A stretch of DNA of 64,000 nt from Ignavibacteriota bacterium (lineage in GTDB: Bacteria; Bacteroidota; Ignavibacteria; UBA10030), in assembly GCA_963727825.1 (NCBI GenBank), contig CAVSHO010000001.1:64001-128000 (forward strand). The letters are read 5' to 3'. Below are positions 7,093-62,190 of the stretch, piece by piece. The notes under the pieces are model-generated. The model made no database searches, was not told the origin of the DNA, and worked only from the letters and a program-made list of their open reading frames with translations. Each line of letters opens with the position of its first letter. Position 1 is the stretch's first letter. A program made the position numbers and the translations under genes.

Positions 7093-8862
7093 TTATTTAA
7101 ATAAATTCTTTTGAATTTCATTCACTAAGCTAGAAGGAACAGCTATTCCAAGTTGTATCGCTTTTTGGCAATGATCTAATGCCGACTGATATTGACCAGA
7201 TTCATAATAGAGGAATGAAAGGTTAAGATGTGCATTACCTATTGTAGGATCTAATCGCAAGGCTTCTTGCCATGCTTTCTCGGCTTTAGTTGGTTCGTGA
7301 GCACTATAATAGAGAATACCTAGATTATATCGAATAGATGCATCTTGTGGGTTGCTTCGGATCGCAGCAAAAAAATTTTCTTCGGATGAAAGAAATAAGC
7401 CACGTGCAAAGTATGCCACAGCGAGTGCATTATTTAGCTCTGGAACAATATAATTTGATTTTTGTTCATTTTTTAAGTTATCAATAATTTTCCATAATTC
7501 TTCTTTCGACACTTCCGTACGCTTAGGTCCTCGCGGTTGTGACGCCTCCTTTATTGCGTTTATTTCATGGTTAAGCTTTTCGGGAACATTCATTCTTGTG
7601 ATATCACTATACAGTCTTGGATCGTTCGGTGATGTAGCGGCATCATATTCCATGAGCGTAAGAGAGTTCTTGAAGTTGAACGTGTGTGTATAGCTAAGCC
7701 ATCCTAAAGAAATAAAAACGAGAAATAATATTGGAGGAAAGTATTTATTTAAATATTCCAATCTGTTTTCATAAGACAGAGAAAGGAGAACGAACAATAT
7801 TCCCATGAACGGAAGATATATTCGGTGCTCATAAAATTTGGGCGGTGTGTGAACTCCAGAATTATAGTAAAATGTGGGGATAAGAAAGGCAAAAAACCAT
7901 ATGAAGCCAAAGATAATAAATTTCCAGTCTCTTCGTTCGGATAGCAAAAGGGCAAGTAAAAACAGACATACAGAAATAATGCCGGCAGTTACATGGATAT
8001 CACTTGAGACAGGGGCAAAAGCAAGATTGAACGGTAAAAATATTTTTCCAAAATAATATACTCCAATCCAAAGATTTGAAATTACAGTTGTCGCTGCCAG
8101 AAGCTTGTTTCCCATAGGCACAATCATTGCAGCAGACCGCAAAATGTACCAGTTGAACAGGACAATTCCCCATCCGACAAGAAAGAGAGCCGTTGTGATT
8201 GAGACTATTTCTTTTCCCTTCAGATTGTAAAAATATAACATGGCAAGAACTGGAAACACAATACTCGTTTCCTTTGTGAACATTGCAAGCGTAAAAAAAA
8301 GAAGATGAATAAAATACCATTTCAGATGAGAGGTTGAAAGAAATTTCATAAATGATATAAAACATAGCAAAATAAGAACAGCAAGCAGAGAATCATTCCT
8401 CCCTGCAATCCATGCAACTGCTTGCGTTAATGCAGGGTGAATACAAAACACAAGCGATCCGAGAAACGATATCGATCTTTTAAAACCAAGCATCTGAAAG
8501 GTAACAAAAAGAAGACAGCAGCTTGCGCAGTGCAAGATGATATCAATCAAATGGTAGCCAAAAGGCATTGTTCCGCTTATTTGTGCGCTGAGAATTAAGG
8601 AAAGAGTTAATAATGGGCGGTATAAGTTACCACCTTGCCCTTGATGACTTACATCCTCCAGAAATGCGTGACCTATATTAGACAAACTATTTATATGTGA
8701 AAAGTTTTCAACTATGAGGAAGTAATCGTCATGATGAGTGTATTCAGAGAATGTGAGAATCTGCAGATAAAGTAAAGAAGCGATAAGTGTTAGCCAAAAG
8801 TAGGGGTGCCAGGAACGTAAAAAGAAATCGTTAACATTAAGGTGTTTTTCCGGTGAATTCAT
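7093..8862 (-). CDS. TMTC-like GT-C protein O-mannosyltransferase with C-terminal TPRs
   Basis: HDD after TM1, YRPL, YHL, IHP..TQAVAWIAGRND, FTKET, EHRIYLP, then TPR repeats. Confidence 0.8.
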   Translation of the reverse strand: MNSPEKHLNVNDFFLRSWHPYFWLTLIASLLYLQILTFSEYTHHDDYFLIVENFSHINSLSNIGHAFLEDVSHQGQGGNLYRPLLTLSLILSAQISGTMPFGYHLIDIILHCASCCLLFVTFQMLGFKRSISFLGSLVFCIHPALTQAVAWIAGRNDSLLAVLILLCFISFMKFLSTSHLKWYFIHLLFFTLAMFTKETSIVFPVLAMLYFYNLKGKEIVSITTALFLVGWGIVLFNWYILRSAAMIVPMGNKLLAATTVISNLWIGVYYFGKIFLPFNLAFAPVSSDIHVTAGIISVCLFLLALLLSERRDWKFIIFGFIWFFAFLIPTFYYNSGVHTPPKFYEHRIYLPFMGILFVLLSLSYENRLEYLNKYFPPILFLVFISLGWLSYTHTFNFKNSLTLMEYDAATSPNDPRLYSDITRMNVPEKLNHEINAIKEASQPRGPKRTEVSKEELWKIIDNLKNEQKSNYIVPELNNALAVAYFARGLFLSSEENFFAAIRSNPQDASIRYNLGILYYSAHEPTKAEKAWQEALRLDPTIGNAHLNLSFLYYESGQYQSALDHCQKAIQLGIAVPSSLVNEIQKNLFK

Positions 8863-8947
8863 TCTACTTCATTTCTTTGGTCGGAGTTTGGTGGCTTTAG
8901 GTGTTGAAAGATATTCTTGATATTAAATCAAGCAACACTATATATAT

Positions 8948-11188
8948 TCAATGAGATATTTTTTCGCTATCGCGGTTTAATGTAAGGCGCATTACTTTAG
9001 AAAGTTCTCCAATTTGATATGGCTTTTGTAAGAATGTATCGCCTGCTGCTTTGCCAAGAGAAGCATCTATAACTCTGTCACCATAACCCGTTGAAATAAC
9101 TACCCGTACATTTGGGTCTATTTTCTTTAACTTTATAAAAGTTTCCTTTCCACTCATTTTTGGCATATTGAGATCGAGAATAACGACGTCGAATCGTTTT
9201 TTCTTTTTATAGAGATTGATTGCTTTCTGTCCGCTATCGACATGTGTAACTTGATATCCGAGACTATCTAACATTCCGTTAATAACGTCTGCAACATCTT
9301 TCTCGTCATCTATCACAAGTACTCGTTCATTGCCGCGTTCGAGTTTTGAAGGCCGCGCCTGCGGTTGAAAATTTTTTGCTGCAGGTATAATTGGAAAATG
9401 TACAGTGAATTCGGCACCATGGTTTAATTCGCTCTGAACGGTAACGAAACCATTATGGGAATTGACAACACCATACACTACAGAAAGCCCCAATCCTGTT
9501 CCTTTTCCTATATCTTTCGTTGTAAAAAATGGTTCGAAGATATGTTGTTGGGTTTTCGTATCCATACCAACGCCAGTATCTGTTATGGAGACGGCAACAT
9601 ATAATCCTTTGTGGATCTCAGGCGTGGCAGTTGGATCATCGTCTACCTGTTTGATTTTGCTTTGGACAGTGATAGTCCCTCCATCCGGCATGGCATCCCG
9701 AGCGTTGATGAGCAAGTTGAGAAATGCTTGTTGAAGTTGTCCGTCATCACCATTAATGATGCACACTTCGTCTGTTAATTTTTTCTCAGTAAGAATTGTC
9801 TTATCGGTGCTGCGTTCGAAAAGCCGCAGTGTTTCTTCGATAATATCATTTACCACTATAGGCCGGAATTGCACATTGCTCTTGCGTGCGAACGTTAACA
9901 GCTGTCGTGTTAAACTGGCACCACGCCGAGCGGCAGTCTCAATTATGTCAGCGAAGCGATACCAACGATCATCATGTTTCATCTTTCGCTTCATAATTGA
10001 AGTTGAGCCAAGAATTGAAGTGAGGATATTGTTAAAGTCATGAGCAATTCCGCCGGCAAGATTTCCAATGCTGTCGATGCGTTGAGCATGAATGATTTTC
10101 GCTTCGAAAGCTTTTTGTTCTGTGATATCACGTGCCACTGCGCGCACAAAGGGTTGTCCGGTTTCATCCAGAATTATAGAAGCGTTAATGCTTACGTCAA
10201 TTAATTCGCCGTTTTTTGCTGTAAATTTTTCCTCCAGGCCTTTGATTCCTTTGTTCCAGTTAAAGATATTATTAAGATTCTGTTGCGCTTCTTTTCGGTA
10301 TTCTGGTGGATATAGTTTCAAAATAGACTCGCCGACTAATTCCTCTTTACTATATCCCAATCGTGTCGCTTCTGTCTTGTTACAACTGATAATTATGCCA
10401 GCTTTGTTGAAAATGTGAGACATATCCGGCGAATTTTCAAAGAGATCAATGTAACGCTCTTCCGATTTATGGACTTGCTCAAATAGCATGGCATTTTCCA
10501 TAGCAATACCGATCTGGTTGGCGAATGCCATGATTAAAGCAATTTGTTTATTGGAGAATGCATCTCGATTTCTGCTTCCCAAAACGATCAGTCCGGACAT
10601 CTGGTCTTTCATCATAATTGGTACTGATGCTAATGATCCAATAACACCGTATGCCCATGGGTAGCCGTTGCTTGAATCAGATTTCTTTGGCCGTTTCATA
10701 ATACGAGGAGAATGAACCCATCTCATTTTTTCGTGATCAACTCCAATAGCAGTATCTACGACAGCAAAATTTAATTCTTCAGTTCCACGAAGAGCCTTGA
10801 GCACAAGTTGATGGTTTTCTACACTAAATATCCATCCGTACTCTACTTCGAGTAAACGTTTCATTTCGAGAAGAGCATTGTGTAGAAGAAATTGAACACC
10901 AATTGCTCGATTTACGGATTCAGCAAATGTGTTTAGTGCGAGCAATTCTTGTTTTTGCTCTTCAAGCAGTCGCCCATACTTTAATGTGAAGAAGACAATA
11001 ATAAATCCAAATACACCGACGGTAAGAACACTCCCAAATAATAGTAGTTCAAGTGTGTGGCCGCTCGTCATCCGCACAACCACAATTGTTACGAGGGTTA
11101 CTACCACAGCAACAGATATGACGATCTGTGCTTGTTCAACTGGTCCAAGTGAGGTGCGAAGTTTTAGAACGTTACGGAAGTTTGCCAT
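8948..11188 (-). CDS. Hybrid sensor histidine kinase (2 TM-GAF-PAS-HisKA-HATPase-REC)
   Basis: AGGIAHDFNNIL H-box, NLLINARDAM, DTGVGM, GTGLGL, C-terminal receiver. Confidence 0.92.
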   Translation of the reverse strand: MANFRNVLKLRTSLGPVEQAQIVISVAVVVTLVTIVVVRMTSGHTLELLLFGSVLTVGVFGFIIVFFTLKYGRLLEEQKQELLALNTFAESVNRAIGVQFLLHNALLEMKRLLEVEYGWIFSVENHQLVLKALRGTEELNFAVVDTAIGVDHEKMRWVHSPRIMKRPKKSDSSNGYPWAYGVIGSLASVPIMMKDQMSGLIVLGSRNRDAFSNKQIALIMAFANQIGIAMENAMLFEQVHKSEERYIDLFENSPDMSHIFNKAGIIISCNKTEATRLGYSKEELVGESILKLYPPEYRKEAQQNLNNIFNWNKGIKGLEEKFTAKNGELIDVSINASIILDETGQPFVRAVARDITEQKAFEAKIIHAQRIDSIGNLAGGIAHDFNNILTSILGSTSIMKRKMKHDDRWYRFADIIETAARRGASLTRQLLTFARKSNVQFRPIVVNDIIEETLRLFERSTDKTILTEKKLTDEVCIINGDDGQLQQAFLNLLINARDAMPDGGTITVQSKIKQVDDDPTATPEIHKGLYVAVSITDTGVGMDTKTQQHIFEPFFTTKDIGKGTGLGLSVVYGVVNSHNGFVTVQSELNHGAEFTVHFPIIPAAKNFQPQARPSKLERGNERVLVIDDEKDVADVINGMLDSLGYQVTHVDSGQKAINLYKKKKRFDVVILDLNMPKMSGKETFIKLKKIDPNVRVVISTGYGDRVIDASLGKAAGDTFLQKPYQIGELSKVMRLTLNRDSEKISH

Positions 11189-11251
11189 ACTATAGAATCT
11201 TTGTTTGAGCGGTTTGTTTCCAATAAACCAAATTACTTTATTGAAGGTTTC

Positions 11252-11632
11252 TTAAACGGATAAATGTTTGGAGAGAACAGAACTCACTTCGTCTTCATTG
11301 AACGGTTTAATCAAATAATCAACTGCGCCAAGCGTGCGCGCCACTTTGCGAGCATCATAATCATCAATAGCAGAGAAAAATATCACTGGAGTTGAAGAAG
11401 TTAAAGGATTACGTTTCAAGCTATCTACTAGATCGAAACCATTCATATCCGGCATCCGAACATCACTAAAAATCAAATCTGGTCTAAAAGTTTTCAAGGC
11501 TTTCAACGCTTCTGCCCCGCTTCCGGCGGTAAGGACATCATAGCCATGACTTCGGAGGATATGTGAAGTAATCTTCTGCCAAGCCGGCTCGTCGTCTATA
11601 ACGAGTATATGTTTTTTCCTTTTAACGGGCAT
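11252..11632 (-). CDS. Single-domain response regulator (CheY-like)
   Basis: LVIDDE, FSDVRMPDMNG, KPF; start at MPVKRKK preferred (ORF extends to 11665). Confidence 0.88.
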   Translation of the reverse strand: MPVKRKKHILVIDDEPAWQKITSHILRSHGYDVLTAGSGAEALKALKTFRPDLIFSDVRMPDMNGFDLVDSLKRNPLTSSTPVIFFSAIDDYDARKVARTLGAVDYLIKPFNEDEVSSVLSKHLSV

Positions 11633-11849
11633 CTTAGACTCTGTAGTATTATTTTCAAGATACAAAGGAGGAGAATAGAAAGCAAACCTGATTTACGAAT
11701 ACGAAATATTTGATATAATGGAAACAGAGGTAATTCCGTCCTGTGTCATCTTGACTCTGTGCGGTAAATTGTTCCACTCCTTCAAGAAATTGTTGAAGCT
11801 TTTTACGCAGAAAAAGAGGGTGGGTAAACGAAAATTGATCTTGCCCGAT

Positions 11850-11865
11850 TGGTACGAAACTTGGA
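11850..11865 (+). promoter_or_regulatory. Candidate sigma54 (-24/-12) promoter for the first pilin-like gene
   Basis: TGGTACGAAACTTGGA versus consensus TGGCACGNNNNTTGC; correct GG-N10 spacing but GG instead of GC at -12. Confidence 0.45.
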
Positions 11866-11943
11866 GATAATATGCAGTCGAATGAAGAAATAAACAATTA
11901 ACACAATTCACTTTATTACAAACTTTTTATTGGAGGATTTATT

Positions 11944-12324
11944 ATGGGACAACAACAGTTATTACTCATCATCCTGGGCGTTATCATTGTCGGTATCGCA
12001 ATTGCCGTAGGATTGAGCCTGTTCAGTGCGCAAAGTGTTCAGGCAAATCATGATGCAATTATCAATGATTTAAATAATATTTCGGCAAACGCATATCAGT
12101 ACTATATTCGTCCTGCCTCTATGGGAGGTGGCGCAAACTCTTATACAGGATATACTATTCCATCTAGAATGTCGTCTAACGAAAATGCTTCATATGCTGC
12201 TGTCCCTAATGGCACAACCAACTGTGCTATTACAGGTACATCATCTTCGGTAACCGGCGCCACTATATTAGCTACAGTAGATAATACAGGACATGTTGCT
12301 ATAACTACTAGCTATGCTTGGTAA
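11944..12324 (+). CDS. Putative type IV pilin-like protein, MGQQQLLL type (copy 1)
   Basis: Strong RBS GGAGGA; MG-QQQ then ~22-aa hydrophobic helix running into an amphipathic helix; small Ser/Thr/Gly/Asn-rich head; own terminator. CDS is firm, pilin call is inference. Confidence 0.6.
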   Translation: MGQQQLLLIILGVIIVGIAIAVGLSLFSAQSVQANHDAIINDLNNISANAYQYYIRPASMGGGANSYTGYTIPSRMSSNENASYAAVPNGTTNCAITGTSSSVTGATILATVDNTGHVAITTSYAW

Positions 12325-12363
12325 GCTATAGTTCTGAGTGGGATTTATGTGATTTATATATAT

Positions 12364-12407
12364 ATCCCAACCATTTTCTTATTGCAAGTGGTTGGGATTT
12401 TTATTTA
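12364..12407 (+). terminator. Rho-independent terminator
   Basis: ATCCCAACCA...TGGTTGGGAT stem followed by TTTTATTT. Confidence 0.7.
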
Positions 12408-12620
12408 AGTTACATAAAGTGGAATTATATAGTAATTCGGTTGTTTACAATAACATATCTTAAAAGTAGACAACAAGATCAAGCTGTCCCGATTTTATGG
12501 GGATCAGCATATATGTGCAAGACATTATATAGATTCCAATCCCGTTAGGTTGTTACAAATCGGGAAGGAACGGCAGTGTATTATTACGATAGTTAACAGC
12601 AATTCATTAGAGAATTTATC

Positions 12621-13034
12621 ATGGGACAACAGCAGTTAATGCTAATCATACTTGGAATGGCCATTATTGGTATCGCACTGGCTGTTGGATTGAGTTTGTT
12701 TAGCTCTAATGGCGTTCAGGCGAACAAAGATGCAATTACCCATGATCTTCTTAATATTTTTGCAGCAAGTGCATATCACCACTATCTTCGTCCCCGAAGT
12801 ATGGGAGGCGGTGCATACGCTTTTGATGGTAGTCATGGCGGCAGCCCATATGTTATACCAACGATGTTGGCGAGCAACGCAAATGGCATATATGTTGCTG
12901 TCAATACACCAAGTACGTGCACTATCACAGGTAGTTCTGTTGCCTATCCTGGTAATTCAGTTTCGTTAACAATTGGTGCTGATGGTAAGCCTGCTCCTCC
13001 TGGTTGGGTTGTTGTTGGCCCGGACTTCAATTAA
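12621..13034 (+). CDS. Putative type IV pilin-like protein, MGQQQLLL type (copy 2)
   Basis: Paralog of 11944: MGQQQLMLIILG...GLSLF, QAN.DAI..DL, AY.Y.RP.SMGGG; divergent C-terminus. Confidence 0.6.
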   Translation: MGQQQLMLIILGMAIIGIALAVGLSLFSSNGVQANKDAITHDLLNIFAASAYHHYLRPRSMGGGAYAFDGSHGGSPYVIPTMLASNANGIYVAVNTPSTCTITGSSVAYPGNSVSLTIGADGKPAPPGWVVVGPDFN

Positions 13035-13256
13035 GCTTCATGCCTGATTATGGCAAAGTTATTTAATATGGATTCTATATCATCTGGATAAAGGTGGTTA
13101 GATTTTTTCCTATTTTGCACTTCATTGAACTATCATTAATCTGTTTTACGTATTCTTACTTGTATTTATCCTTTACTACTATTCCGCAAAATGTTGTTAT
13201 TCACATAATGGTAGGAAACACTTTTTCTTTATAAAACTTTATTGTATATATCTGTT

Positions 13257-13973
13257 ATGAAACCAAAATCTAAAGTTATTGTTGTCTTACCAGCCTATCA
13301 GGCTGAGAAGACATTAGAACTAACTGTTCGCGATATTTCACTCTCCGTCGTTGATGAAATTATTTTAGTTGACGATATGAGCAATGATCATACCGTGGAG
13401 ATTGCACGGAAATTTAATCTTGTTGTTGAACAACATACAAAGAATTTAGGCTATGGTGCGAATCAAAAAACATGCTACCAATTAGCCCTTCGTCGAAATG
13501 CAGATATCGTTGTTATGCTTCACCCTGATTATCAATATGACCCTAAGCTCATTCCTCATTTTGTTGATTTTATCCAAAATGGCTACTTCGACGTAATGCT
13601 CGGCACTCGAATACGCACAAGAAAGGAAGCTTTAGCAGGAGGAATGCCGCGATATAAATACTTTTCAAACCGACTCTTGACATTCATAGAGAACATTATC
13701 ACAGGGCAAAATCTATCCGAATGGCATACGGGCATGAGAGCATACAGCCGTCGAGTACTAGAGTCGATCGATTATTTAAAAAATTCGGATGATTTTGTTT
13801 TCGATAGCCAGGTGTTATTTCAAATTGTGGAGCATGGCTTTCGCATTGGAGAAATCCCCGTACCTGTCCGGTATTTTCCAGAAGCTTCCAGCATTAATTT
13901 CTCACGTAGTTTGCGATATGGAATTGGAACGATCGGAACCGCGTTAAAGTTCTTAATAAGAAAAATCTTCTGA
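13257..13973 (+). CDS. GT2 glycosyltransferase, polyprenol-phosphate sugar synthase (DPM1/ArnC-like)
   Basis: [38 protein letters not shown]. Confidence 0.85.
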
Positions 13974-14003
13974 TCTATCAGTTGGGCGGGCGGCATCATT
14001 AAT

Positions 14004-15632
14004 ATGAGACTGAAAATACTAAACATTCCTTACCCACTAATATTCCTATTTTTCATCATTCTTTTCACAATTTTTTTTCGGGTGCGATTATTAAATGTTC
14101 CTCTAGAGCGCGATGAAGGTGAATATGCTTATATAGGTCAGCTCATTCTTGATGGGACTCCGCCTTACACCGAAGCATATAATATGAAATTCCCCGGTAT
14201 TTACTTTATCTATGCCGGAATATTATGGCTTTTCGGTGAAACACACACAGCAATTCATTTTTGTCTACTCATTGTCAATGTGCTCTCGATTGTACTACTT
14301 TACATTTTTGCACGCAGAGCCTATGATGATTGGGTTGCGGCAGCTTCTGCAGGCGCCTTTGCGCTCTTGAGTATGAGTTACCATGTTCAAGGGTTTTGGG
14401 CAAATGCTGAACATTTTATTTTGCCTTTCGTAATAGGCGCAAATATCCTCTTGCTTTCCGGGTTGAAGAAAAACCGAATAAAATATATTCTATTCAGTGG
14501 GATCCTGTTTGGCTGTGGAGCTCTTGTAAAACAGCAGGGCGCATTTTTTGGCCTCTTCGGATTCGCAGCTTTGCTTGTTTTGTTATGGCAAAATAAAACA
14601 TTTGAAAAAAAGATTTACTGGGAATGCATTTTAGCTTATTCTGGAGGAGTTATTATTCCCTTGCTCCTATGTTTTTCCTACCTCGCTTATGCAGGAGTTC
14701 TTGAAAAATTTTATCTTTGGACTTTTATCTACGCAAAGGAATATAGTTCGATAACATCCGTAATGGATATTAAATACAATTTCATTAGAGGGTTCCAATC
14801 CATCTTGTATTTTGCGTCTCTTATTTGGATCATAGCCGGAATAGGATTGATTACTTTATTTTCCGGCAAATATAATAAGCAATCGGGCATTCTCATTATA
14901 GGGTTACTCATTGCTGGCGTCATTGCGCTTTCGGTTGGCTTCTATTTTAGCCCACATTATTTTATATTAGTACTGCCTGCAACAGCCGTTCTTTTTGGAA
15001 TTGGAATTCGATATATTTTTCATATTTTTTCATCTGCTTCATCATCAATAGTACGCTATTTCCCACCCATCTTTATTGTTACGATAACAATTCTTGGCAC
15101 TATCGCAGCTCACTGGGATGTCCTATATCAATTCTCACTTGCTCAGGTGACTGAAACAGTATATCACAGTAATCCTTTTCTATTTTCTTCTAAGATTGCA
15201 AAAATAATAAGTGAAAATACTTCAAAAGAAGATCGAATAGCTATAATCGGAAATGAACCGCAATTCCTATTTTATTCTCACCGCAGGTCTGCGACATCGT
15301 TTATTTATACTTACTCTATTGGTGAAGACCAACCGCTTGCCGAACAATTTCGCTTTGAAATGATACAACAAATTGAATCGTCATTTCCCAAACTTCTCGT
15401 TTATTCAAGTATTCAACCCGAATGGTATAAAAAACCAAAAGGTTGGGAAGAGTTAGATAAATGGTTTTTTAGCTTTGCGAATTTACATTATGCTCCATTT
15501 GCCCGTTTTGAATACAATAATATTAAAGACACATTACTAATTACAGATACAGATAGGATATTAAAGAAACCGACGCATTTATTTTGGATCACGATTTATA
15601 AGAAACTATTAACTGATGATAAGCAAAAATGA
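14004..15632 (+). CDS. GT-C membrane glycosyltransferase (GT39/PMT/ArnT-like)
   Basis: ERDEGEYAY acidic loop after TM1, PY...K.PG, NAEHF, LVKQ, PHYF; many TM helices and a periplasmic tail. Confidence 0.8.
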   Translation: MRLKILNIPYPLIFLFFIILFTIFFRVRLLNVPLERDEGEYAYIGQLILDGTPPYTEAYNMKFPGIYFIYAGILWLFGETHTAIHFCLLIVNVLSIVLLYIFARRAYDDWVAAASAGAFALLSMSYHVQGFWANAEHFILPFVIGANILLLSGLKKNRIKYILFSGILFGCGALVKQQGAFFGLFGFAALLVLLWQNKTFEKKIYWECILAYSGGVIIPLLLCFSYLAYAGVLEKFYLWTFIYAKEYSSITSVMDIKYNFIRGFQSILYFASLIWIIAGIGLITLFSGKYNKQSGILIIGLLIAGVIALSVGFYFSPHYFILVLPATAVLFGIGIRYIFHIFSSASSSIVRYFPPIFIVTITILGTIAAHWDVLYQFSLAQVTETVYHSNPFLFSSKIAKIISENTSKEDRIAIIGNEPQFLFYSHRRSATSFIYTYSIGEDQPLAEQFRFEMIQQIESSFPKLLVYSSIQPEWYKKPKGWEELDKWFFSFANLHYAPFARFEYNNIKDTLLITDTDRILKKPTHLFWITIYKKLLTDDKQK

Positions 15633-15803
15633 AAAGCACAGATGTTGGTAAAATTAGAAAAGAGGTCTTACTTTCGTTTGAGTTTTTTATTGCTGATAAG
15701 TCTGTAGATATGTACATTAAATCAGCACTATGAGGATACGAACGAAGGGATGGCTATTTGAATTATCCACTGTCCGCCAGCATTCGTTGTTCAACTTGAA
15801 ACC

Positions 15804-17657
15804 ATGCACGATCATGGCAGGATAGACATCCATAAGCAAAGCATGAACCGAAACGATAAAAGAGAATACACCATCATACTGGGATTGCTGATCGCTCTCG
15901 GCTTAGTTCTCGTCGTTACGACAATTAAAGGCCCCTTCATAATCGACGAGGACAACTATCTAGTTACTGTAATTGGCCTCCGCCAAGGGGTTCTTACCGT
16001 ACCCGGTACGGAAGGACTCACGCCAAGTAAAGAGCTTTTCTTTTTTGACCCGGAGGCATATGGTAGAATCGCTTCCCGCACGCCTGTATTTTCTATCGCA
16101 CCACCATTGTATGCACCAATAGCTCTTCCATTTGTGTTTTTGGGTTGGCGAGGTCTAGTGCTCCTCAATACCATTTCATATCTGCTCACGGCATTCATTG
16201 TTTTTGTGACGGTAAAACACTTTTCGACTGAGCGCCAGACACCATGGCTCGCTGCAGCGCTTGTGTTGTTTGGAGGATATGCGATCGAGTATGCTCAAGG
16301 CGTCTGGCCCCACATGCTTTCTGTATGCCTGGTAACGTCTGCTGTCTTTGCCGCCAGCAGAGTATGGAATGGGGGAAGACCACAGATCGCGATCATCTGC
16401 GGATTGCTGATGGGCATTGCCACCGGGGTTAGAGAGCAGAACATTATCCTAACCGGGCTATTGGGTATAACGCTACTTCTATTCGGTGTAAAAAAAATTG
16501 TCTCATCCTTTTGGTTCGCCCTCGGAGCTTTGCTTCCTCTTACACTCATAGGAATAATTAATTTTTTTAGACAGGGAATATTCCATCCGTTTCCGAAGGC
16601 GGTCGCATTTTCAGGTCAGTTGACTCAGAGTGTAAGCGGTAGTTCGACTAGTTCGCCTCTGCAAATGTTCTGGGCACGGGTGGTTGATTTTTCCTCGTAC
16701 CCGCCAATTACAGACTCCATCCAATCTCTCTTCTACAGAAAGGATCCCGTATCCGGCGTTGTCTTCGTATTCGGAGTAGTGAAAAAGGCACTAATTCAAT
16801 CTTCTCCCTGGGTTGCCCTGGCGTTGGTAATTCTAATTCTTGTCTGGCTAAACAGAAATCTGTATTCGAAAGATGTGAAAAAAAATCTCAGAGCTCTCTC
16901 TTTGTTAATCCTCCCTTTTCTTGTGTTCATGACATTGGTGGGGGGAGTACGAACAGATGGGCTTTGTTACAATCAGCGATATTTTCTTGAAGTCATTCCG
17001 TTGGCGGCGATTACCATCGCACTTGCACTCGACGGACTTGCCCTTCCCATCGTACCTATGGTCACTGGCTTACTGGGTTCAGGTATTCTGTTTGCACTGA
17101 CGTTGATGCTCTCGTCTCGTTCCCTGTATGGAATTGCTCTCACCAGGATTCCGCTTCTTTTGGCTGCAGTCCTAGTGATGGTCTGGATTTTTCGATCAGA
17201 AAAGTCTATACACTTGATCTTCCCACTCCTAATAGGACTTTGTATCGGGTGGGCGATGTTTGTTCACGTATTTGATGATCTCTCAGCATCGCGGACACGA
17301 AGGAGTAGGCAAGCTGCACAACTTGCAGTTCTGGAATCGACCATACCAAATCATTCCGCTCTTTTCGCATATTGGGGTTCGAAGGATGCTGCAGGGCCGC
17401 TCTTGCTTACGCGCGATGTCGTGATCCTCGATGTCTGGGCAGATAATGGAGTTGATGCTGTTCGGCTTACACATGAGCTCGAGCTCCAAAACCGCCGGAT
17501 CTTCGTCTTGACGGATTGGTTTCCTGATTTAGTGCTGAAAGGAATTGTAGGCAAAGATTCTCTCGCTGTTGTATCTAGACGTACGATTGGTATCGGTGAA
17601 GTTGTCAAACGGAATCAAGAGAATAATCATATGGAAATGAGCTCTCCGAAACTATAA
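15804..17657 (+). CDS. Polytopic GT-C-like membrane protein
   Basis: IIDEDNY acidic motif after TM1, PPLYA, WPHM, NQRYFLE; start may be 15843. Confidence 0.6.
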   Translation: MHDHGRIDIHKQSMNRNDKREYTIILGLLIALGLVLVVTTIKGPFIIDEDNYLVTVIGLRQGVLTVPGTEGLTPSKELFFFDPEAYGRIASRTPVFSIAPPLYAPIALPFVFLGWRGLVLLNTISYLLTAFIVFVTVKHFSTERQTPWLAAALVLFGGYAIEYAQGVWPHMLSVCLVTSAVFAASRVWNGGRPQIAIICGLLMGIATGVREQNIILTGLLGITLLLFGVKKIVSSFWFALGALLPLTLIGIINFFRQGIFHPFPKAVAFSGQLTQSVSGSSTSSPLQMFWARVVDFSSYPPITDSIQSLFYRKDPVSGVVFVFGVVKKALIQSSPWVALALVILILVWLNRNLYSKDVKKNLRALSLLILPFLVFMTLVGGVRTDGLCYNQRYFLEVIPLAAITIALALDGLALPIVPMVTGLLGSGILFALTLMLSSRSLYGIALTRIPLLLAAVLVMVWIFRSEKSIHLIFPLLIGLCIGWAMFVHVFDDLSASRTRRSRQAAQLAVLESTIPNHSALFAYWGSKDAAGPLLLTRDVVILDVWADNGVDAVRLTHELELQNRRIFVLTDWFPDLVLKGIVGKDSLAVVSRRTIGIGEVVKRNQENNHMEMSSPKL

Positions 17658-19213
17658 TGAATCTCCGCAAACAATTACTCACATGGTTGCCCACTTTCAC
17701 CGTGATCGCCATATTCCTAATCTATCTACGCACTTTGCTACCCGGGATTGGATACTCAGGCGATACATCAAAATTTCAATTCGTGGGCAAGGTTCTTGGC
17801 ACACCTCATGAACCGGGTTCGCCGACTTACGTTATGCTCAATTTTCTTTTCGTGAACATATTCCCAATCGGTACGACAGCTTTCAAGGCAAATCTGTTTT
17901 CAGCAATAACCTCAATGCTTTGCCTGTGGGTTCTCTCGCGTTCCCTGATTTTACTCGGTGTGCGTCCTTTCATCGCCGCTTGTACAGTCGCAATTTTTGG
18001 GTTCACATACACCTTCTGGTCGCAATCGGTAATCGCCGAAGTGTATTCGTTATGCATACTCTTCATCGCGATTACTCTGTATTACTTCATTCGGTGGCAC
18101 CTCTTTGGGGAGTATAGATATTTCCTATTCGCTTGTGCGTTCTATTCCTTTTCTTTTGGTGATCATCTCATCGTCGTGACATTGTTTCCTGCAATATTCT
18201 TTTTAGTTTTGGCAACAAGGAGGGATTATTTCACTAAGCCGCGGATCATTGTGCACGTGACTATCTTGATTCTTCTAGGAGCGCTCCAATATGGTTATCT
18301 GTTTTGGAGAACATATGCCCATGACACGTCCTATCTCGAAATTGCAGTTACAAATCTCAACGATCTCTGGCGCTATGCAAGTGGAGGGCAATTCCATGAT
18401 AAATTGATGGATGGAGGCCTGAACAAAGCTTTCTTTATTCGGATGCCTATAATGGTTCGCCTAGCGTGGCTTGAATATTCTGTGTTCTTACCTTTTGCCA
18501 TTCTAAGTTTTTTCGTCATTCGTGATACTTCGTTGAGAGTATTTCTCGTACTATGTGCAGCAGGAACATTTGTGTTTACATGCATATATGGAATTCCGGA
18601 CATATATGTTTATATGATTCCAGTGTACTATATCTTGGCATTAGCTCTTGGGATTGGCTTGGAATGGCTTGCCAGCTGCTGCACGCGGCGCTCCTTGATT
18701 CTTTTTCAGCTCTCTCTTGTTTGCATGCCCTGCCTCTTCCTGTCTGTCAACTATCAAAAGGCGGATCAAAGCAGCAATGTGAGCGCGAAGGAGTTCGTTG
18801 AACGCTCGCTCAAGTCTATTGGCAGAAAGTCGCTCATCGTCTGTCCAAAATATGATTGGGGAGAAAATTTTTGGTATTATATTTTTGCAGAAGGATATCA
18901 GCAAGACAGCATCTATGCTTTTTACCCGCATGATACTGAAGTGCCGGTCGAATCGCTGGAATCGTACATCAACGACGGTAAACCGCTTTATTTACCTGTC
19001 CAGCGCTGTTACACTCCCGCCGGACTGACAGTATATTTCTGTACTTCCTCCGAAGAACGTGATTTCGATGATTCTCGCGCGCGATACCCATCCATTAAGA
19101 CTATTCTTCCCTTTTCTATAAGTGATCCTTCTATGGAGCGTATGATAAATAACGGTTTCCGATTTACACAAATAGGAATTGGTATGTACAGAATAGATAA
19201 ACCTTCACTTTGA
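17657..19213 (+). CDS. DUF2723 / TMEM260-like GT-C protein O-mannosyltransferase homolog
   Basis: GDTSKFQ...LGTPHEPGSPTY, FWSQSVIAEVYSL; translationally coupled to upstream gene (TAATG). Confidence 0.8.
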   Translation: MNLRKQLLTWLPTFTVIAIFLIYLRTLLPGIGYSGDTSKFQFVGKVLGTPHEPGSPTYVMLNFLFVNIFPIGTTAFKANLFSAITSMLCLWVLSRSLILLGVRPFIAACTVAIFGFTYTFWSQSVIAEVYSLCILFIAITLYYFIRWHLFGEYRYFLFACAFYSFSFGDHLIVVTLFPAIFFLVLATRRDYFTKPRIIVHVTILILLGALQYGYLFWRTYAHDTSYLEIAVTNLNDLWRYASGGQFHDKLMDGGLNKAFFIRMPIMVRLAWLEYSVFLPFAILSFFVIRDTSLRVFLVLCAAGTFVFTCIYGIPDIYVYMIPVYYILALALGIGLEWLASCCTRRSLILFQLSLVCMPCLFLSVNYQKADQSSNVSAKEFVERSLKSIGRKSLIVCPKYDWGENFWYYIFAEGYQQDSIYAFYPHDTEVPVESLESYINDGKPLYLPVQRCYTPAGLTVYFCTSSEERDFDDSRARYPSIKTILPFSISDPSMERMINNGFRFTQIGIGMYRIDKPSL

Positions 19214-19234
19214 AATTCCTTCCTGCTAAGCATT

Positions 19235-19266
19235 CAATGGGGTACGCCTCAACTAAAACCCCATTG
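19235..19266. terminator. Hairpin between convergent genes, possible bidirectional terminator
   Basis: CAATGGGGT...ACCCCATTG inverted repeat; no clear U-tract. Confidence 0.35.
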
Positions 19267-19292
19267 GGGGCGATGTTGAGATGTTTGCATAA

Positions 19293-20522
19293 CTATTTCT
19301 TTCTTTTGTGTAAAATTATATTCCAATTCGGATTTATTGGAATGCTTACACTATCTTTTGTTCCGATTAAGCTGCTGTTATATTTCCAATTATAGTCTAT
19401 CATTTTTGTTCGTATTCCAATTGAAATAGATGAACAAGGTATAAGGAGCAGTAATGATATAATAAATATATTTTTCCAGATTCCTTGTTGATTTAAACAA
19501 AGTATTAAAGACCACGCGACCATTACATGAGGTAAATAATAATATCTGCCGGATATTGTCGTGACGAATGGAGAGAAATTGTACCTAGCTATGAGAGCTA
19601 TCAGTACTATTACTGATACGGTTAAAAACATAAATACTATCTTTAATATTCGTTTATCCTTTGAAGATTTTAGATAGGACAGGTAGAGAAGAATAGAATA
19701 AAAAGCTAACGCGCCGACGCTTATTATTAGTGCATTACTTTTCATCATAGATCTTCCAAAAAACAGTCCGCTGAACATCCTTCTTCCAAATATAGAAATG
19801 TAAACGTCTAAATTGAACATGTTACCCTCTTGCAAAATTTCTGTGCTCGGAACGATGAAGGAGAGTTGAATCAATAGCATGCAAAACGCTGTAACGAGCA
19901 AGGTATATCCATATATCTTTTTTGTATGTAATAATTTCCACACGAGAAAGGGGAATATAATAATCAGAAATGGACCTGTTAATCCTGCAAATATGATTAT
20001 AATAAAATCAGATATTACTTGAAGAGTGTAATTTCCGTATTTTTTATTAGGGGCGTCTTTTAGTAACGTCAATACGAGCAATAAACACAATATCCATTGG
20101 AGATTTGTTACGTTGAGAAAGACCTCATTCAATACTTGTGGAACAATTACAATTGAAAGAGCTAAGAGTGGTTTAAATGGTAATGGCAGTCTTGGTGAAA
20201 AACAATGAGCGATTACTATAATAGTAATTAACAGACACGTATAATTGTAAACTGCCGGTATGTTAGCATATGAAAAGAACAAGTCGGCAAATACTGCTAT
20301 AAGTCTTGGAACAATATGAAGATAGCCGGCATATGGAGTAAATATGGACGCGGCACCATATTCATATTGTTGAGCGAAGAAGATCGTTCCGTCTTCTGCC
20401 CAAAACTGAGGATTAATCAAAGAATCCGATTTTCGAACTATGAGTATAAGTATTGCAAGTACTATAAAGGCAATATTTTTATAATTTATAAACCTATTTT
20501 GTGCGACATGTCTTGTATCCAT
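19293..20522 (-). CDS. Polytopic GT-C-like membrane protein (PQFWAEDG type)
   Basis: PQFWAEDG, PYAGYLH..PRL, TNLQW, GRYYYLP; very AT-rich. Confidence 0.6.
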   Translation of the reverse strand: MDTRHVAQNRFINYKNIAFIVLAILILIVRKSDSLINPQFWAEDGTIFFAQQYEYGAASIFTPYAGYLHIVPRLIAVFADLFFSYANIPAVYNYTCLLITIIVIAHCFSPRLPLPFKPLLALSIVIVPQVLNEVFLNVTNLQWILCLLLVLTLLKDAPNKKYGNYTLQVISDFIIIIFAGLTGPFLIIIFPFLVWKLLHTKKIYGYTLLVTAFCMLLIQLSFIVPSTEILQEGNMFNLDVYISIFGRRMFSGLFFGRSMMKSNALIISVGALAFYSILLYLSYLKSSKDKRILKIVFMFLTVSVIVLIALIARYNFSPFVTTISGRYYYLPHVMVAWSLILCLNQQGIWKNIFIISLLLLIPCSSISIGIRTKMIDYNWKYNSSLIGTKDSVSIPINPNWNIILHKRKK

Positions 20523-40773: not shown

Positions 40774-43700
40774 CTATTTCTTTTCAAGCACCTTTCTAAT
40801 CTTTGCGAGCACTTCTTCTATGATATAAGGCTTTTGTAGAAACCCCAGTACGCCGGCACTTTCCAATTTCGCCTTAACGTCCGGCTCAAAATATCCGCTG
40901 GCTAATATCATCTTTACTGCAGGGTTTATTTCTTTGAGTTTTTTAAATTCAGCTTCGCCCGATAGTTTTGGCAAGCCCATATCACTGATAACGAGTGCAA
41001 TCTCATGTGCATGCTGGTTATATATATCCACTGCTTCCATACCGTTCTTTGCCGTTAGAACAGTATAACCGTGTGATTCAAGAAGAAGTTGTACCATATC
41101 GAGCATCAAGTCTTCATCTTCTACAATAAGAAGGGTCTCGGTTCCACCGTGAACTAAACCTTCCTCCTTACCAGCTTCGAGTGTCGGAATGCTTTCCTTT
41201 GGAACTGGCAAATATAAATGGAAGGTCGTTCCGCTCCCGACTGTGCTTTCGACATCCACGAACCCATGATGAGCTTGAATAACACCATACACTACAGAAA
41301 GTCCCAATCCTGTTCCTTTGCCTTTCTCTTTTGTTGTGAAGAACGGGTCAAAAATTCTATTGCGAGTCGTTTCATCCATCCCCGTACCTGTATCAGATAC
41401 AGTTATGCAGATATATAGCTGTTCATTTGCCGCTGGGAAACGTTCAAGCAACTTATCACCTGCTGTCGTATCTGCAGTGATTGTTATAACACCTCCATTG
41501 GGCATAGCATCCCGCGCGTTAACGCATAGATTGAGCAATGTCTGATGGATTTGTGTGTGATCGGCATTGATCATCGGAAGCTGTTTTTCTATTTCTTTGT
41601 TGAATGTGATAATTTTTGGGAATGTCTGTTGCAGCATCGAAACAAGTTCTCGCGTAAGATCAGGAACGTCCAATGGTTCGAATGCAATTTCAGCTTTGCG
41701 GGCAAAAGTAAGAATTTGCCTGACCAGTGCTGCAGCACGATCGATTGTTTGTTTGATAGCGTTCACACTATCTGAAAATTTCTGTGGATTATCCTTTATC
41801 GAGGGAAGGATGGATGTGTATCCGAGAATGATTCCAAGAATATTATTGAAATCGTGCGCAATTCCGCCGGCGAGTGTGCCAATGCTAAGCATCTTTTGAG
41901 ATTGCACCAACTCTTGCTGAAGTTTCTTTTGTTCTGTAATGTCTTGGAAAACTTCCAGCATTGCCTTGCGTCCTTCGTACATCATACCAACATGACTGAT
42001 TTGGAAAGTTTTACCGCCTAAGACGCCCGTTGTTTCAATAACACCTGGTTTCCCAAATGATATTCCTCTCTTCAACGGACAGTCTTGGCATTGCTGGTTG
42101 TCGTCTTTGTACACCTGCCAGCAACACATATCTACCGCATCAACTGTAAGCATTTCCTTCATAGTATTACTGACAAAAAGAATATTTCCTTCTTCATCAA
42201 CAATGTTCATTCCGAATGGCATTGTCTGAATGAGCATGATCGTTAAAGGCATGCGTTTGACGAAGCGATTCTTCTGCCATCCGGCGTTGAGTGAGATCGG
42301 AGAAGAAAGCAATTGTGTGCTCACTCGTCAATACGAACGTAGACTCGATGTACTTCGTTGAGCCGTCCTTGCATGTGATGACGGATTCCATCGGTTGAGG
42401 TTCATGGTTTTCTCTTTGTGCCCATTCAATGGAAGTGCGCCAAGCTTCTTCAATCTGACTCCGATATTCTTCCCGCGGATATGCGATAGGCCACCATGCA
42501 CTCAAGGATGGTACATCAGCTTGTTCATACCCAAAGAGCTCAGTAAAACTATGGCTGACGTACTCAATGGTTTGATTCTTTCCGGAGAACACAGCATTAG
42601 CGACAGGTGAAAACTCTACTAATGTTTTAAAAAGTCCTTCACTTTGCACCAAAGCTTCTTCTACTTCTTTACGTTCTGTAATATCCTCGATCATAGCGAT
42701 AAAATGCAAAATCCGGTTACTATTATCACGAATAGCTGTAATAGTTGCTGCTCCCCAGACGGCTCGTTTGTCTTTTCGCATGTAGCGCTTCTCGGTATGA
42801 TAAATGGGAATATCTCCAACGGAAAGTTTTTTCATTGCTTCTGAGTCTTGCGTTATATATTCCGGATGTGTAATATCTTTGAAGGTGAGCGAAGTTAATT
42901 CATTTTCCTCATAATCCATCATTCTGCAAAAAGCTGCATTGGCTTTAATAAATTTAAAGTCTGTGCCAGAAGTCGCCATTCCGAGCGGGCCTTCTTCAAA
43001 TATTCTTCTGAAGCGCTCTTCACTTTCCTTCAAGAATTCTTCTGCACGCTTGCGATCGGTAATATCTATGACAATCCCGCTCAAGCCCACAGGTTTATTT
43101 TTCTGCATAATTCTATTTGCATAGAGAGCTGCTGGAAACGTACTGCCGTCTTTCTTGATTATTAAGTATTCTTGCTCTCCTATTTCTTCTCCATTCAAAC
43201 GCTTCCGCATATTCTCTAATGCTCTGTTTTTATCTTGCGGATCAAATATTTGAACAGCATTGAACCCTTTAGCAATATCATCTTCTGTGTATCCCGCAAT
43301 TGTAAATCCTTGACGATTGATGAATGTCACATTCCCCTTTTCATCTGTCTCAAAAATAATTTGTGGTAATAAAGTGGATAGATTTCTAAACCTCTCTTCG
43401 CTTTTACGTATTATCTCATCTGCTTGTTTGCGTTCAGTTATATCCCGAATAATGCTTTGATAGAATTTCTTTTCATCAACCTTAATAAATCGTGAACTGA
43501 TTTCAGCGGGGAATACTGTGCCGTCTTTTCGCCTGTGTTCTGCCTCATATATTAACCCGCCTCGCTCTTCAACCTGTCTCATTTGTTTTTCATCCTGAGA
43601 ACTAGTTTTTTGTGAAAGGAGATCGTAGATACGCAATTTTGCAAACTCTTCCCTTGTATAACCGTAAACCTTGCAGGCCTGGTCGTTTGCTTCTACGATC

Positions 43701-44806
43701 CATCCATCCATATTGACTAATAGGACACAGTCATTCGCATATTTAATGACGTAATCGAAGTGCTTCACGAGAGCTTGGCGTTCAACTTCCGCTGAATATT
43801 TATCATGATAGAATATGGAACGCTGATGCCGCCACCATGCCACTATAATGCCGCTGACTGCTAAGATAACAAGGAACGTTCCGATAGCGGCGATCCAAGC
43901 TTGTGAATAAAGAGATTCATAAACTTCTTCCTGGTCGCATTTTGCATTCATATACCAGGGAGAATCGGGAATATGTCTAATTGCCACGAGCACAGGAACA
44001 CCGCGATAATCAATACCTTCAACTATTCCTTCGATACCGCGGACCGCCATTGAAGCGGGGAGCTGTTTGTTAGAAATTGGCAAGCGTAACGTCAGCATCG
44101 TGTTTTTTTGATGACGAAGCTCATTTAAATAAACAATGCTCTCTCCATCTTGTTCAAGCAATAATGTCTCAGATGTGCGGCTTGGCTTCGGCCATGATTG
44201 GATAAGTTGAAAAAGAACTGCCTGCGGATTGATACGCAGCATTATCGCTCCAATTAGAGAGCTGTCATGTCGATCATGGAAAAAAAGAGGCACCATCAAA
44301 TCCATATGAGCAATAGGAAGCGGCCCTGATTTGTGTAAATCCGAGAGGATTGCTTTTCGTTGACGACTAACTTCTTGAAATAATGAACGAGCTAATGTAC
44401 CGACTGAATCACCATAGCGCGATACTGATAGACGGACTTTTCCCTTTGCGTCGAACAAGATGGAAGATTCATAACCAACTTCGGACTCAAATGATTTCAT
44501 TACTGCAAGAATTTCTTGTTTTCGATCCGTATTGGCTGAAGAATTTAAAAAATCCTTAACTGTTCGTAAGAGAGGTAGGTTGTTAAAAAGAAGGTCACCA
44601 TCTGCGATTCGTTCGCGGCGCCATTGAGTAATTTGGCTCACCTTTAAATCTGCTATGGCTGAGAGATCGTTTTGAGCTTCTAATTTAATGCTCTTCTTCT
44701 GTGCTTGATAGAAACGGTAACCGGCAAGAAGAGTACATGCCACTAAGAGCACAAAAACAATAAGGATGAACCAGTGGATTTTCCGGCGGGGTAGATGAAT
44801 TTTCAT
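40774..44806 (-). pseudogene. Large hybrid sensor kinase (TM-Cache-like-TM, multiple PAS, HisKA, HATPase, REC) split by a +1 frameshift near 42238, or a sequence error
   Basis: Coding strand ...TTT AAC GAT C ATG CTC ATT CAG ACA ATG CCA...; removing one base joins EESLRQTHAFND to MLIQTMPFGMNIVD. Confidence 0.8.
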
Positions 44807-54179: not shown

Positions 54180-54236
54180 ATTAAATCCTATGAGCTAATA
54201 TCGCGCTTCAGCTTCGTTCACTATGAGGTGCTTAAT

Positions 54237-55259: not shown

Positions 55260-55276
55260 ATTGAATTCTTTCTAAA

Positions 55277-56542: not shown

Positions 56543-56632
56543 AAAATATTATTTTCTATTGATAGCAAGAAAAGAAGATAATGCTTTGGAATCAAGCCAA
56601 CGCACTAACAGAGTCAAGCCATTGTAAAGTGA

Positions 56633-58294: not shown

Positions 58295-58381
58295 AACGCC
58301 GCCTTTCGATAATTACGAAAGTGGTACACAACTTGATGTGGCCTCTAAAGTTTCAAATCAGAAATCTAAGAAACTGCGAGA

Positions 58382-58864: not shown

Positions 58865-58892
58865 TTGTTTTCCTCAAATTATGTATAAAAGA

Positions 58893-59369: not shown

Positions 59370-59431
59370 AGTCGTGTTACCAGAATTCTGGAAACCACTG
59401 TGCAAACCGAAAGAGCAGATTGAAAGCTCTG

Positions 59432-60811: not shown

Positions 60812-60835
60812 AATATATTCAGAATAAGAAAGCGT

Positions 60836-61942: not shown

Positions 61943-62190
61943 AAGCGATCGCTTTTGCTGGGTGACACACCTTCCCTATCAGCGCATTCTAATTGTCGAA
62001 TACAGCATCCAATCTGGAAAAATCTAGTATCAAGAAGCGCCAATTTTGTAATTTCTACTAACGGAAATAATAACCAGATTCGCTTGAAAAGTCAATTGCT
62101 TTCTCCTCTTTTGGCTATATAGAAGGGTTGAAATTGACATCAAGCACTACTACATTAGAGTACGAACTTCTATCAATCGATCGGTTTACA

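Follow-up and report, generated by a model that had tools for sequence, protein, structure and literature searches.

The block at positions 7093-20522 of the window (the whole stretch of DNA analyzed, 64,000 nucleotides of contig CAVSHO010000001.1 in the Ignavibacteriota bacterium assembly GCA_963727825.1, here genome G000) encodes two small proteins that start with the motif MGQQQ, a family 2 glycosyltransferase (GT2) and five polytopic membrane proteins of the GT-C type. By a small margin, the evidence favors reading this block as a pilin locus, belonging to a non-canonical type IVa-like pilus, whose variable accessory cassette glycosylates the pilin in the manner of Pseudomonas TfpW. All eight open reading frames (ORFs) named in an earlier prediction from the sequence of the window (the original prediction) were recovered in place. 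Judged by the names attached to their homologues, the proteins come from one of the Ignavibacteria-type Bacteroidota. The pilin genes and the start of the first are as follows.

11932..11936, plus strand: Shine-Dalgarno GGAGG in the sequence, 7 nt 5' of the pilin 1 ATG
11944..12324, plus strand: MGQQQ pilin 1, 126 amino acids (aa), assigned by AlphaFold2 (AF2) model and VIA-align fold matches
12621..13034, plus strand: MGQQQ pilin 2, 137 aa, paralogue of pilin 1

The AF2 model of pilin 1 (pLDDT 91.7) consists of a helix at residues 3-55 and four strands, which are the long N-terminal helix and four-stranded antiparallel sheet of the pilin fold. Type IV pilins fill all of the top 13 rows of the VIA-align comparison, led by Neisseria PilV with Z 10.5 and a root mean square deviation (rmsd) of 1.9 over 87 aligned residues. 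Foldseek returned no match at E 0.001 for either this model (best E 0.036) or the WAEDG glycosyltransferase model described below, and VIA-align settled both folds. The two genes had been proposed to be pilin-like and paralogous, and both points hold: the fold is that of a type IVa pilin and the proteins are 52% identical to each other. Fold and gene context make the MGQQQ proteins very likely main subunits of a type IVa-like pilus. Pilin 1 is the probable major subunit and pilin 2, which has an orthologue in genome G179 at 76% identity, is a divergent paralogue and probably a lower-abundance subunit. The family comprises at least 2,929 clusters and matches nothing in Pfam or NCBIfam; PF07963 was found in 0 of 119 members.

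The MGQQQ pilins have no leader of the usual kind. Met1 is a start codon in 169 of 172 distinct genes, 165 of the 172 have no in-frame start upstream, and the upstream open frame has a median length of 4 codons. A Shine-Dalgarno-like motif precedes 134 of the 172 genes compared with 11.5 in shuffled sequences, and the GGAGG located 7 nt before the pilin 1 ATG supports Met1 as the true start. The chain begins Met-Gly, with neither the basic leader of a class III signal peptide nor Phe+1. Glu5 is also missing: positions 6-9 are aliphatic, with Leu8 in 165 of the 172 genes. A weak profile match to the Geobacter pilin (E 0.035) places the mature +1 position at Gln4 and the Glu5 slot at Leu8. Gly2-Gln3 is nearly invariant. 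The minor pilins of the system are built likewise, one family reading M-N/S-T-G-Q and another often having no Gly ahead of the helix (for example L082, L062 and L075).

The pilin heads are rich in Ser and Thr, which alternate along the strands. Ser+Thr accounts for 31% of the head of pilin 1 and 18% of that of pilin 2, and heads throughout the family average 26% compared with 12.6% in long ORFs of G000.

The same head domain occurs outside pilins. Secreted proteins contain it in 2-6 tandem copies that lack the membrane helix (P0121, P0122, P0123, P0187, P0211, P0223 and G107:C38:31686-34322). Some of these proteins are 1,400-2,300 aa long, and the head is here reused as a repeat module of adhesin-like proteins. 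The C-terminus of the large ones is presumably of the type IX secretion system kind. Membrane proteins ending in an MGQQQ pilin head were also seen (G000:C11:424264-425034, P0163 and P0169). The neighbors of the G000 example are small membrane proteins and a gene for an extracytoplasmic function (ECF) sigma factor, and the domain may have a sensor or anti-sigma use.

The pilus machine was located from the neighbors of the pilin in 79 loci taken from species-representative genomes. PilC was found in 45, PilB/PilT in 43, PilM-like proteins in 34, PilO-like proteins in 30 and the secretin PilQ in 23. The MGQQQ pilin heads a PilC-PilB-PilT-PilM-PilO-PilQ locus in these relatives, and the machine is adjacent in about half of the 79 loci. 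Components were named from NCBIfam, except that PilM and PilO, which have no NCBIfam match, were named by position and N-terminal likeness. The machine of G000 lies on another contig (C11:358377-367172) with no pilin adjacent; its ATPases score as PilB and PilT-like in NCBIfam (PilT-like 314 bits, cut-off 319) and its secretin is PilQ-like. Among 201 genomes of the class, the pilin occurs in 103, the PilM-like protein in 106 and both in 101. PilB, PilT, PilC, PilM/O and a secretin, the set that marks a type IVa pilus, are encoded in the same genome as the MGQQQ pilin.

The leaderless system is spread over at least four loci of G000. Its further parts include a second PilC-PilB pair with leaderless minor pilins (C1:440244-445438), a separate minor-pilin trio (C10:84504-87164) and an orphan third MGQQQ pilin (C10:214693-215100). 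Family f17 loci (L153, L148 and others) carry a second pilin-PilM-PilO-PilQ-minor pilin set without PilB/PilC and show interleaved duplications of pilin and minor pilin.

Peptidase cleavage of the leader counts as one of the core steps in assembling type IV filaments, and the peptidase-free MSH loci described by Denise et al. in 2019 always have a peptidase elsewhere in the genome (PMC6668835). The 201 class genomes were searched for PilD with PF01478 and strong PF06750 matches; seven weak PF06750 matches in other genomes (E of at least 3e-6, partial profile cover) were left uncounted. A prepilin peptidase was detected in 13 of the 201 genomes, 12 by PF01478 and one added by PF06750. Canonical N-methyl pilins also occur in 12 of these 13 genomes and lie within about 1.6 kb of the peptidase gene in 11 of the 12 PF01478 genomes. 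No prepilin peptidase was found in 89 of the 101 genomes that have both pilin and machine, most of these assemblies being drafts. The single-contig genomes G076, G079 and G156, which carry both, gave no match to the G000 PilD even at E 1. In control genomes PF01478 found the peptidase in 12 of 14 references; Lactococcus lactis was missed by it and found by PF06750. Together, the start-site data and the absence of a peptidase at this sensitivity make it likely that the MGQQQ pilins are assembled uncleaved.

The only PilD of G000 (C7:125640-126431) sits inside a separate, canonical type IV filament or type II secretion system (T2SS)-like locus with N-methyl pilins (C7:120262-147193). PilB is split into two ORFs in this locus, which also contains a gene for a 3,385-aa protein. 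Loci of this kind, with PilD and pilins together, are sporadic and occur in 11 sampled genomes.

Two alternatives bear on the pilus itself. The MGQQQ pilins could be cut after Gly2, like archaeal G|Q class III sites, by a peptidase that is not of the A24 family or is too diverged to be found. The near-invariance of Gly2-Gln3, the M-N/S-T-G-Q start of one minor pilin family and the two controls missed by PF01478 speak for such an enzyme, and the PilD of G000 counts against uncleaved assembly because it would allow cleavage in trans in this strain. However, the other minor pilin family often lacks the Gly, no basic residues precede the helix, the weak Geobacter alignment places +1 at Gln4 rather than Gln3, and the three single-contig genomes lack even a distant PilD match. 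A hidden peptidase is accordingly judged unlikely, and it would alter the assembly step alone. The machine could also build a short T2SS-like secretion pseudopilus, with any glycan serving subunit stability instead of phage defense. GspF is the best or nearly the best match of PilC, all components stay below the NCBIfam equivalog cut-offs, and a secretion system derived from type IVa pili has been described in Bacteroidetes by Denise et al. (PMC6668835). This proposal is very improbable when set against the near-cut-off score of the PilT-like ATPase, a secretin closest to PilQ, top fold matches that are all pilus pilins, and pilin heads that are tandem and hypervariable. The preferred reading of this part is a type IVa-like pilus with uncleaved subunits.

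The remaining features of the block, which is three transcription units and not a single operon, are as follows.

7093..8862, minus strand: GT-C with tetratricopeptide repeats (TPR-GT-C), 589 aa, Pfam PMT_2 E 4e-5 (below cut-off) and TPR matches
8948-11188, minus strand: GAF-PAS hybrid histidine kinase (Pfam)
11252-11665, minus strand: single-domain response regulator (Pfam)
12364..12398, plus strand: terminator-like hairpin, an inverted repeat with a U-rich 3' end, 3' of pilin 1
13242..13973, plus strand: GT2, 243 aa (PF00535)
14004..15632, plus strand: ERDEGE GT-C of the ArnT/PMT_2 type, 542 aa (PF13231, 63.7 bits)
15804..17657, plus strand: IDED GT-C, LA_3751/LA_3752-like, 617 aa (NF047440 E 6e-16, below cut-off; PMT_2 E 0.005)
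17657..19213, plus strand: TMEM260-like (DUF2723) GT-C, 518 aa (PF11028, 57.3 bits, cut-off 24.2)
19293..20522, minus strand: WAEDG GT-C of the GtrV/GtrX type, 409 aa (no Pfam match; GtrV homology)

The hairpin behind pilin 1 has a folding energy of -19.1 kcal/mol (z -4.8), and none of 200 shuffled sequences was equally stable. A consensus terminator scan has no entry for it, and the matches of the promoter/terminator consensus scan were not above those in shuffled sequence. The start of the TMEM260-like gene overlaps the stop of the IDED gene, and the WAEDG gene is convergent to the other cassette genes and outside their transcript. The TMTC-like protein predicted upstream is indeed a GT-C with TPRs; it lies on the opposite strand, and the histidine kinase and response regulator separate it from the pilins. 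This two-gene flank between TPR-GT-C and pilins recurs in L032, L079, L080, L170 and L283 and is a conserved flank, at most a candidate member of the pilin/GT-C system. The original prediction saw no wzx/wzy/wzz, ABC exporter or nucleotide-sugar genes in the block, and none is present among the Pfam matches of the window ORFs scanned.

All five membrane proteins are GT-C-type, the WAEDG protein by predicted fold and homology and the other four by profile matches and motifs. They are as dissimilar as predicted, with BLAST E-values above 1 to each other. The acidic loops proposed to follow the first transmembrane helix are present and go beyond chance; the IDED loop is supported in part, by the one orthologue seen, where D-E alone is kept. 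R36-D37-E38-G39-E40 of the ERDEGE protein is invariant in 88 homologues, W41-A42-E43-D44-G45 of the WAEDG protein is at least 90% conserved in 114 homologues, and D45/D46 of the TPR-GT-C is conserved in 18 homologues. The TMEM260-like protein has G35-D36 in this loop, D36 aligning with the catalytic Asp52 of human TMEM260 (E 2e-8), and this residue together with a PF11028 score over the cut-off places the protein in the TMEM260/DUF2723 family. The WAEDG AF2 model (pLDDT 94.5) gave GT-Cs as its top VIA-align rows, namely AglB, ALG12, Pmt and ArnT with Z 15.6 to 12.5; the AglB match has Z 15.6 and rmsd 5.1 over 334 aligned residues. Its sequence is 28% identical to phage SfV GtrV over 415 aa (E 1e-24), with D376 aligned to GtrV D380, a residue described as important in the available text of PMC3259042. 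By homology the WAEDG enzyme probably adds a sugar branch to a glycan. Searches of the Protein Data Bank (PDB) gave no match with the ERDEGE profile and, with the TPR-GT-C profile, TPR proteins only among the matches listed.

The GT2 had been called a polyprenol-phosphate type enzyme, and PF00535 together with PDB matches to ArnC and DPMS bears this out; the NCBIfam models for PpgS and dolichyl-phosphate hexose transferase both match at E 1e-20, far below their cut-offs. From its DPM1/ArnC/PpgS-type sequence it is a probable polyprenyl-phosphate monosaccharide synthase.

Linkage of GT-C genes with the pilin was measured in 15 genomes, 12 of them from the family, on which all PMT_2 matches and all pilins whose N-terminus is intact were mapped. 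The expected count was the share of the genome within 10 kb of pilins. In the 12 family genomes, 22 of 91 PMT_2 matches lie within 10 kb of a pilin compared with 1.2 expected, and 10 of the 12 genomes are positive. Leaving out G000 gives 18 of 83 matches and 9 of 11 genomes, and adding three more genomes of the order, one of them picked after its locus had been seen, gives 27 of 118 matches and 13 of 15 genomes. The five genus genomes have pilin and machine at separate sites; of their 35 PMT_2 matches, 12 are close to the pilin and none is close to PilM, and PMT_2 genes stay with the pilin and not with the machine. The GT2 has orthologues at 77% identity or more in 6 of 251 phylum genomes (G000 included), each beside an MGQQQ pilin. 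Two arrangements place the GT2, ERDEGE and TPR-GT-C families next to the pilin: in one, that of the window, they lie downstream of an orphan pilin, and in the other they diverge from the start of the pilC operon (L036, L047, L073, L101 and L131).

Across 104 loci with an intact pilin, which are biased to close relatives and often cut by contig ends (nine duplicates dropped), a GT-C lies within 6 kb of the pilin in 23 and within 1.5 kb in 20. Two of the 23 (L054 and L076) were called by motif or BLAST match and not by Pfam. Two named loci of other families, L050 and L054, also carry a GT-C near the pilin. On a quick pilin tree, the GT-C label changes 22 times, compared with 33.6 times when labels are shuffled; with many unresolved forks and with contig ends truncating many of the unlabelled loci, no count of origins was drawn.

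The individual enzymes recur beside pilins in other genomes. ERDEGE, the most constant cassette member, has pilin-adjacent orthologues at 41-84% identity. TPR-GT-C homologues adjoin MGQQQ pilins at 35-70% identity, an IDED orthologue lies three genes before the pilin in G155 at 70% identity, and TMEM260-like relatives stand beside pilins in G155, L050 and L170. The IDED gene is GC-rich, and the third-position GC content (GC3) of the IDED-TMEM260 pair is 0.46 compared with 0.31-0.35 in neighboring cassette genes. The pair recurs before the pilin in G155 and has the appearance of a module acquired recently. Cassette content is mosaic and differs in each of the five genus genomes. Between pilin and PDZ gene the loci contain the following.

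G000 (the window): GT2, ERDEGE, IDED, TMEM260-like, WAEDG
G107: GT2 and WAEDG only
G171: ERDEGE, TPR-GT-C, WAEDG
G179: GT2, ERDEGE, another PMT_2
L170: ERDEGE, TMEM260-like, WAEDG
L046, L079 and L087: no glycosyltransferase gene

Some related GT-C genes were seen in other settings. A large TPR-bearing GT-C of G000 is split over three ORFs (C12:53737-56243), and its relatives directly precede the pilin in L075, L081, L082 and L288. Another lineage, of about 53% GC, has recurring arrays in which an ERDEGE GT-C is joined by three or four TPR-GT-Cs but not by a pilin (L185, L188, L193, L201, L213, L218, L224, L228 and L249). Two distant ERDEGE homologues follow canonical pilins in pilin-led cassettes (L173 and L243).

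N-glycosylation at the conserved N81 was considered and rejected. The sequon is present in 26 of 37 GT-C-linked and 93 of 130 unlinked pilins, and no full STT3 was found: PF02516 has no match in G000, and the 11 weak matches in the 201 genomes cover only profile positions 48-267 of 405. The N81-x-S/T motif is probably structural. The number of N-x-S/T motifs per head is 1.57 in GT-C-linked and 1.59 in unlinked pilins. D-S/T-x, a Bacteroidetes motif, is rarer in linked pilins (0.30 compared with 0.59).

Linkage and the analogy with TfpW make pilin glycosylation by one or more of the cassette enzymes moderately probable. A strict form of the original prediction, in which a single dedicated pathway of the GT2 and all five GT-Cs builds one pilin glycan sugar by sugar, is improbable. 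For all six enzymes, at least one further genome does encode a relative next to an MGQQQ pilin. However, the genes occupy three transcription units, their content changes from one genus member to the next (G107, G179, G171 and G099, the GT2 being absent from the pilin loci of G171 and G099), and one GT2 supplies one donor sugar. A different explanation is that the locus is a hot spot of surface variation, in which mobile GT-Cs decorate lipopolysaccharide (O-antigen or lipid A) or envelope glycoproteins and share a site with the pilin through shared phage pressure. Several observations count against the pilin as acceptor, and some favor the hot spot directly. The WAEDG enzyme is a full-length relative of GtrV, which glucosylates O-antigen, ERDEGE homologues are annotated as ArnT-type, and the GC3 of the IDED-TMEM260 pair is foreign. 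Heads of GT-C-linked pilins carry no Ser/Thr signature (0.265 in 37 linked and 0.259 in 130 unlinked pilins, p 0.8). Other lineages have GT2-ERDEGE-TPR-GT-C groups in which no pilin was detected (L174, L187 and L237). Among 80 metagenomic ERDEGE-family loci, many on short contigs, L170, the closest of the long ones, includes an MGQQQ pilin, but a pilin was seen in only 3 of the 77 distant loci, most of which are TPR-GT-C arrays without one, so the ERDEGE family is not pilin-specific. The GT-C enrichment expected within 10 kb of MGQQQ genes is strong in the family, but no GT-C was seen in 23 pilin loci of 21 genomes outside the order (L136-L158), and since kin are not independent the enrichment overstates the number of events. 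PF04138, the GtrA-type flippase, was not found in the G000 assembly, which is 96.8% complete. Against the hot spot stand the GT2 orthologue beside the pilin in six of six genomes, the retention of the genes with the pilin through a rearrangement that parted it from the machine, the presence of two enzymes among the five whose architectures are known for protein acceptors (TfpW/TMTC type and TMEM260), and the lack of a gtrA-gtrB arrangement or O-antigen genes in the block. The hot spot is therefore considered rather doubtful, and a mosaic cassette acting on the pilin is preferred.

The following mechanism would account for the locus. The MGQQQ proteins, on the evidence of fold and gene context, are the main subunits of the PilB/PilC/PilT/PilM/PilO/PilQ machine on contig C11. 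Because only Met-Gly-Gln is translated before the mature position, the pilins would enter the inner membrane essentially mature and likely assemble without prepilin-peptidase cleavage or a Glu5 salt bridge. The GT2 would make a polyprenyl-phosphate monosaccharide, as its family suggests, and a flippase would turn it outward. The TPR-GT-C, the best candidate for the first sugar transfer to protein, and/or the TMEM260-like enzyme would then, with moderate probability, place a sugar on Ser/Thr of the head of the membrane-bound pilin, as TfpW does. The ERDEGE, IDED and WAEDG enzymes would extend or branch this glycan from the donor of the GT2 or from donors of other GT2s of the genome. Swapping of modules would alter the pilus coat, and by analogy the purpose of the cassette is most likely evasion of pilus-binding phages; Pseudomonas pilin glycans block phages according to the available text of bioRxiv 150227. 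In its broadest form the proposal is a class-wide retractile type IV pilus of unprocessed, Glu5-free pilins without any peptidase, joined in one order by as many as five interchangeable GT-C families, bacterial TMEM260- and TMTC-like enzymes among them, which write strain-specific O-glycans on the beta-sheet face of the pilin. This extended version is put forward tentatively.

The closest known arrangement is pilA-tfpW(-tfpX) of Pseudomonas aeruginosa group IV (Pa5196 and PA7). TfpW is described as a GT-C with a DDX motif and TPRs, encoded next to pilA (bioRxiv 2020.04.19.049825). The product of 7093-8862 likewise has a DD motif and C-terminal TPRs, and a GT-C near the major pilin is conserved in family relatives; the likeness to TfpW was judged by architecture (polytopic, DD motif, C-terminal TPRs) and published description. 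Both systems would use a lipid-phosphate monosaccharide donor and a Ser/Thr-rich pilin as likely acceptor, with accessory genes that vary by strain (bioRxiv 2020.04.19.049825; bioRxiv 150227, in their available text). The window differs in having up to five unrelated GT-Cs and a hexose/N-acetylhexosamine-type GT2 synthase in place of one enzyme on a DprE1/E2 arabinose route, a TPR-GT-C that is two genes off on the other strand, and a leaderless pilin. With the type IVa pili of Pseudomonas, Neisseria, Thermus and Geobacter it shares the pilin fold, long N-terminal helix, PilB, PilT, PilC, PilM-like and PilO-like proteins, secretin and minor pilin set, but it has no basic leader, Phe+1 or Glu5, and its genomes mostly lack a detected PilD. 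The balance of evidence leans, by a little, to a system that works like pilA-tfpW on a pilus that departs from type IVa pilins in leader and Glu5.

The GtrA-GtrB-GtrV/GtrX systems of Shigella phages SfV and SfX resemble the locus in the full-length GtrV homologue, which keeps the FWAED-type loop and D380, and in a nearby GT2 donor synthase. They differ in that gtrA is found neither in the locus nor in the assembly, there is no gtrA-gtrB-gtrC operon, the GT2 and WAEDG genes are on opposite strands with WAEDG convergent in a pilin cassette, and the GT2 has 243 aa and no membrane helices compared with 307 aa for SfV GtrB. The animal protein O-mannosyltransferases TMEM260 and TMTC1-4 share with the window a PF11028 member with the catalytic Asp and a TPR-bearing GT-C. 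The TMEM260-like enzyme is bacterial and shorter than its animal counterpart, and the 589-aa TPR-GT-C has no DUF1736/TMTC Pfam match. The animal enzymes are reported to modify Ser/Thr on beta-strands of folded domains (PMC10214176).

No description of these pilins or this cassette was found in a literature search that left most subscription journals and all supplements outside its reach. The leaderless pilus carries most of the surprise. About 100 sampled genomes have Met-Gly pilins and mostly no peptidase was found in them, which makes the leader-cleavage rule testable. The same two features explain why the Melioribacter roseus genome paper reports pilT, pilQ, pilB and pilC as found and pilA and pilD as not found (PMC3534657). 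Cultures exist of both M. roseus and Ignavibacterium album, which opens uncleaved assembly to direct testing. Several orphan bacterial GT-C families (TMEM260-like, TPR-GT-C, LA_3751-like, and GtrV-like outside enterobacteria) gain candidate donors and substrates from the cassette, which also suggests that an environmental lineage switches its pilus glycans. A glycosylated pilus free of peptidase, if true, would be the first peptidase-free type IV filament and the first substrate for bacterial TMEM260-like enzymes.

Elsewhere in the window, two gene clusters look ordinary. Positions 25851-48752 encode two NiFe hydrogenases, a heterodisulfide-reductase-like set (CCG, FAD/4Fe-4S and MvhD) and hyp maturation genes. 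Within this range, the minus strand at 40774-44806 has two ORFs that share 127 nt, one multi-PAS and one kinase-receiver, which are possibly a single frameshifted hybrid kinase. Positions 53553-63762 hold ordinary histidine utilization genes (urocanase, an imidazolonepropionase-like protein, a split formiminotransferase-cyclodeaminase and an ammonia-lyase).

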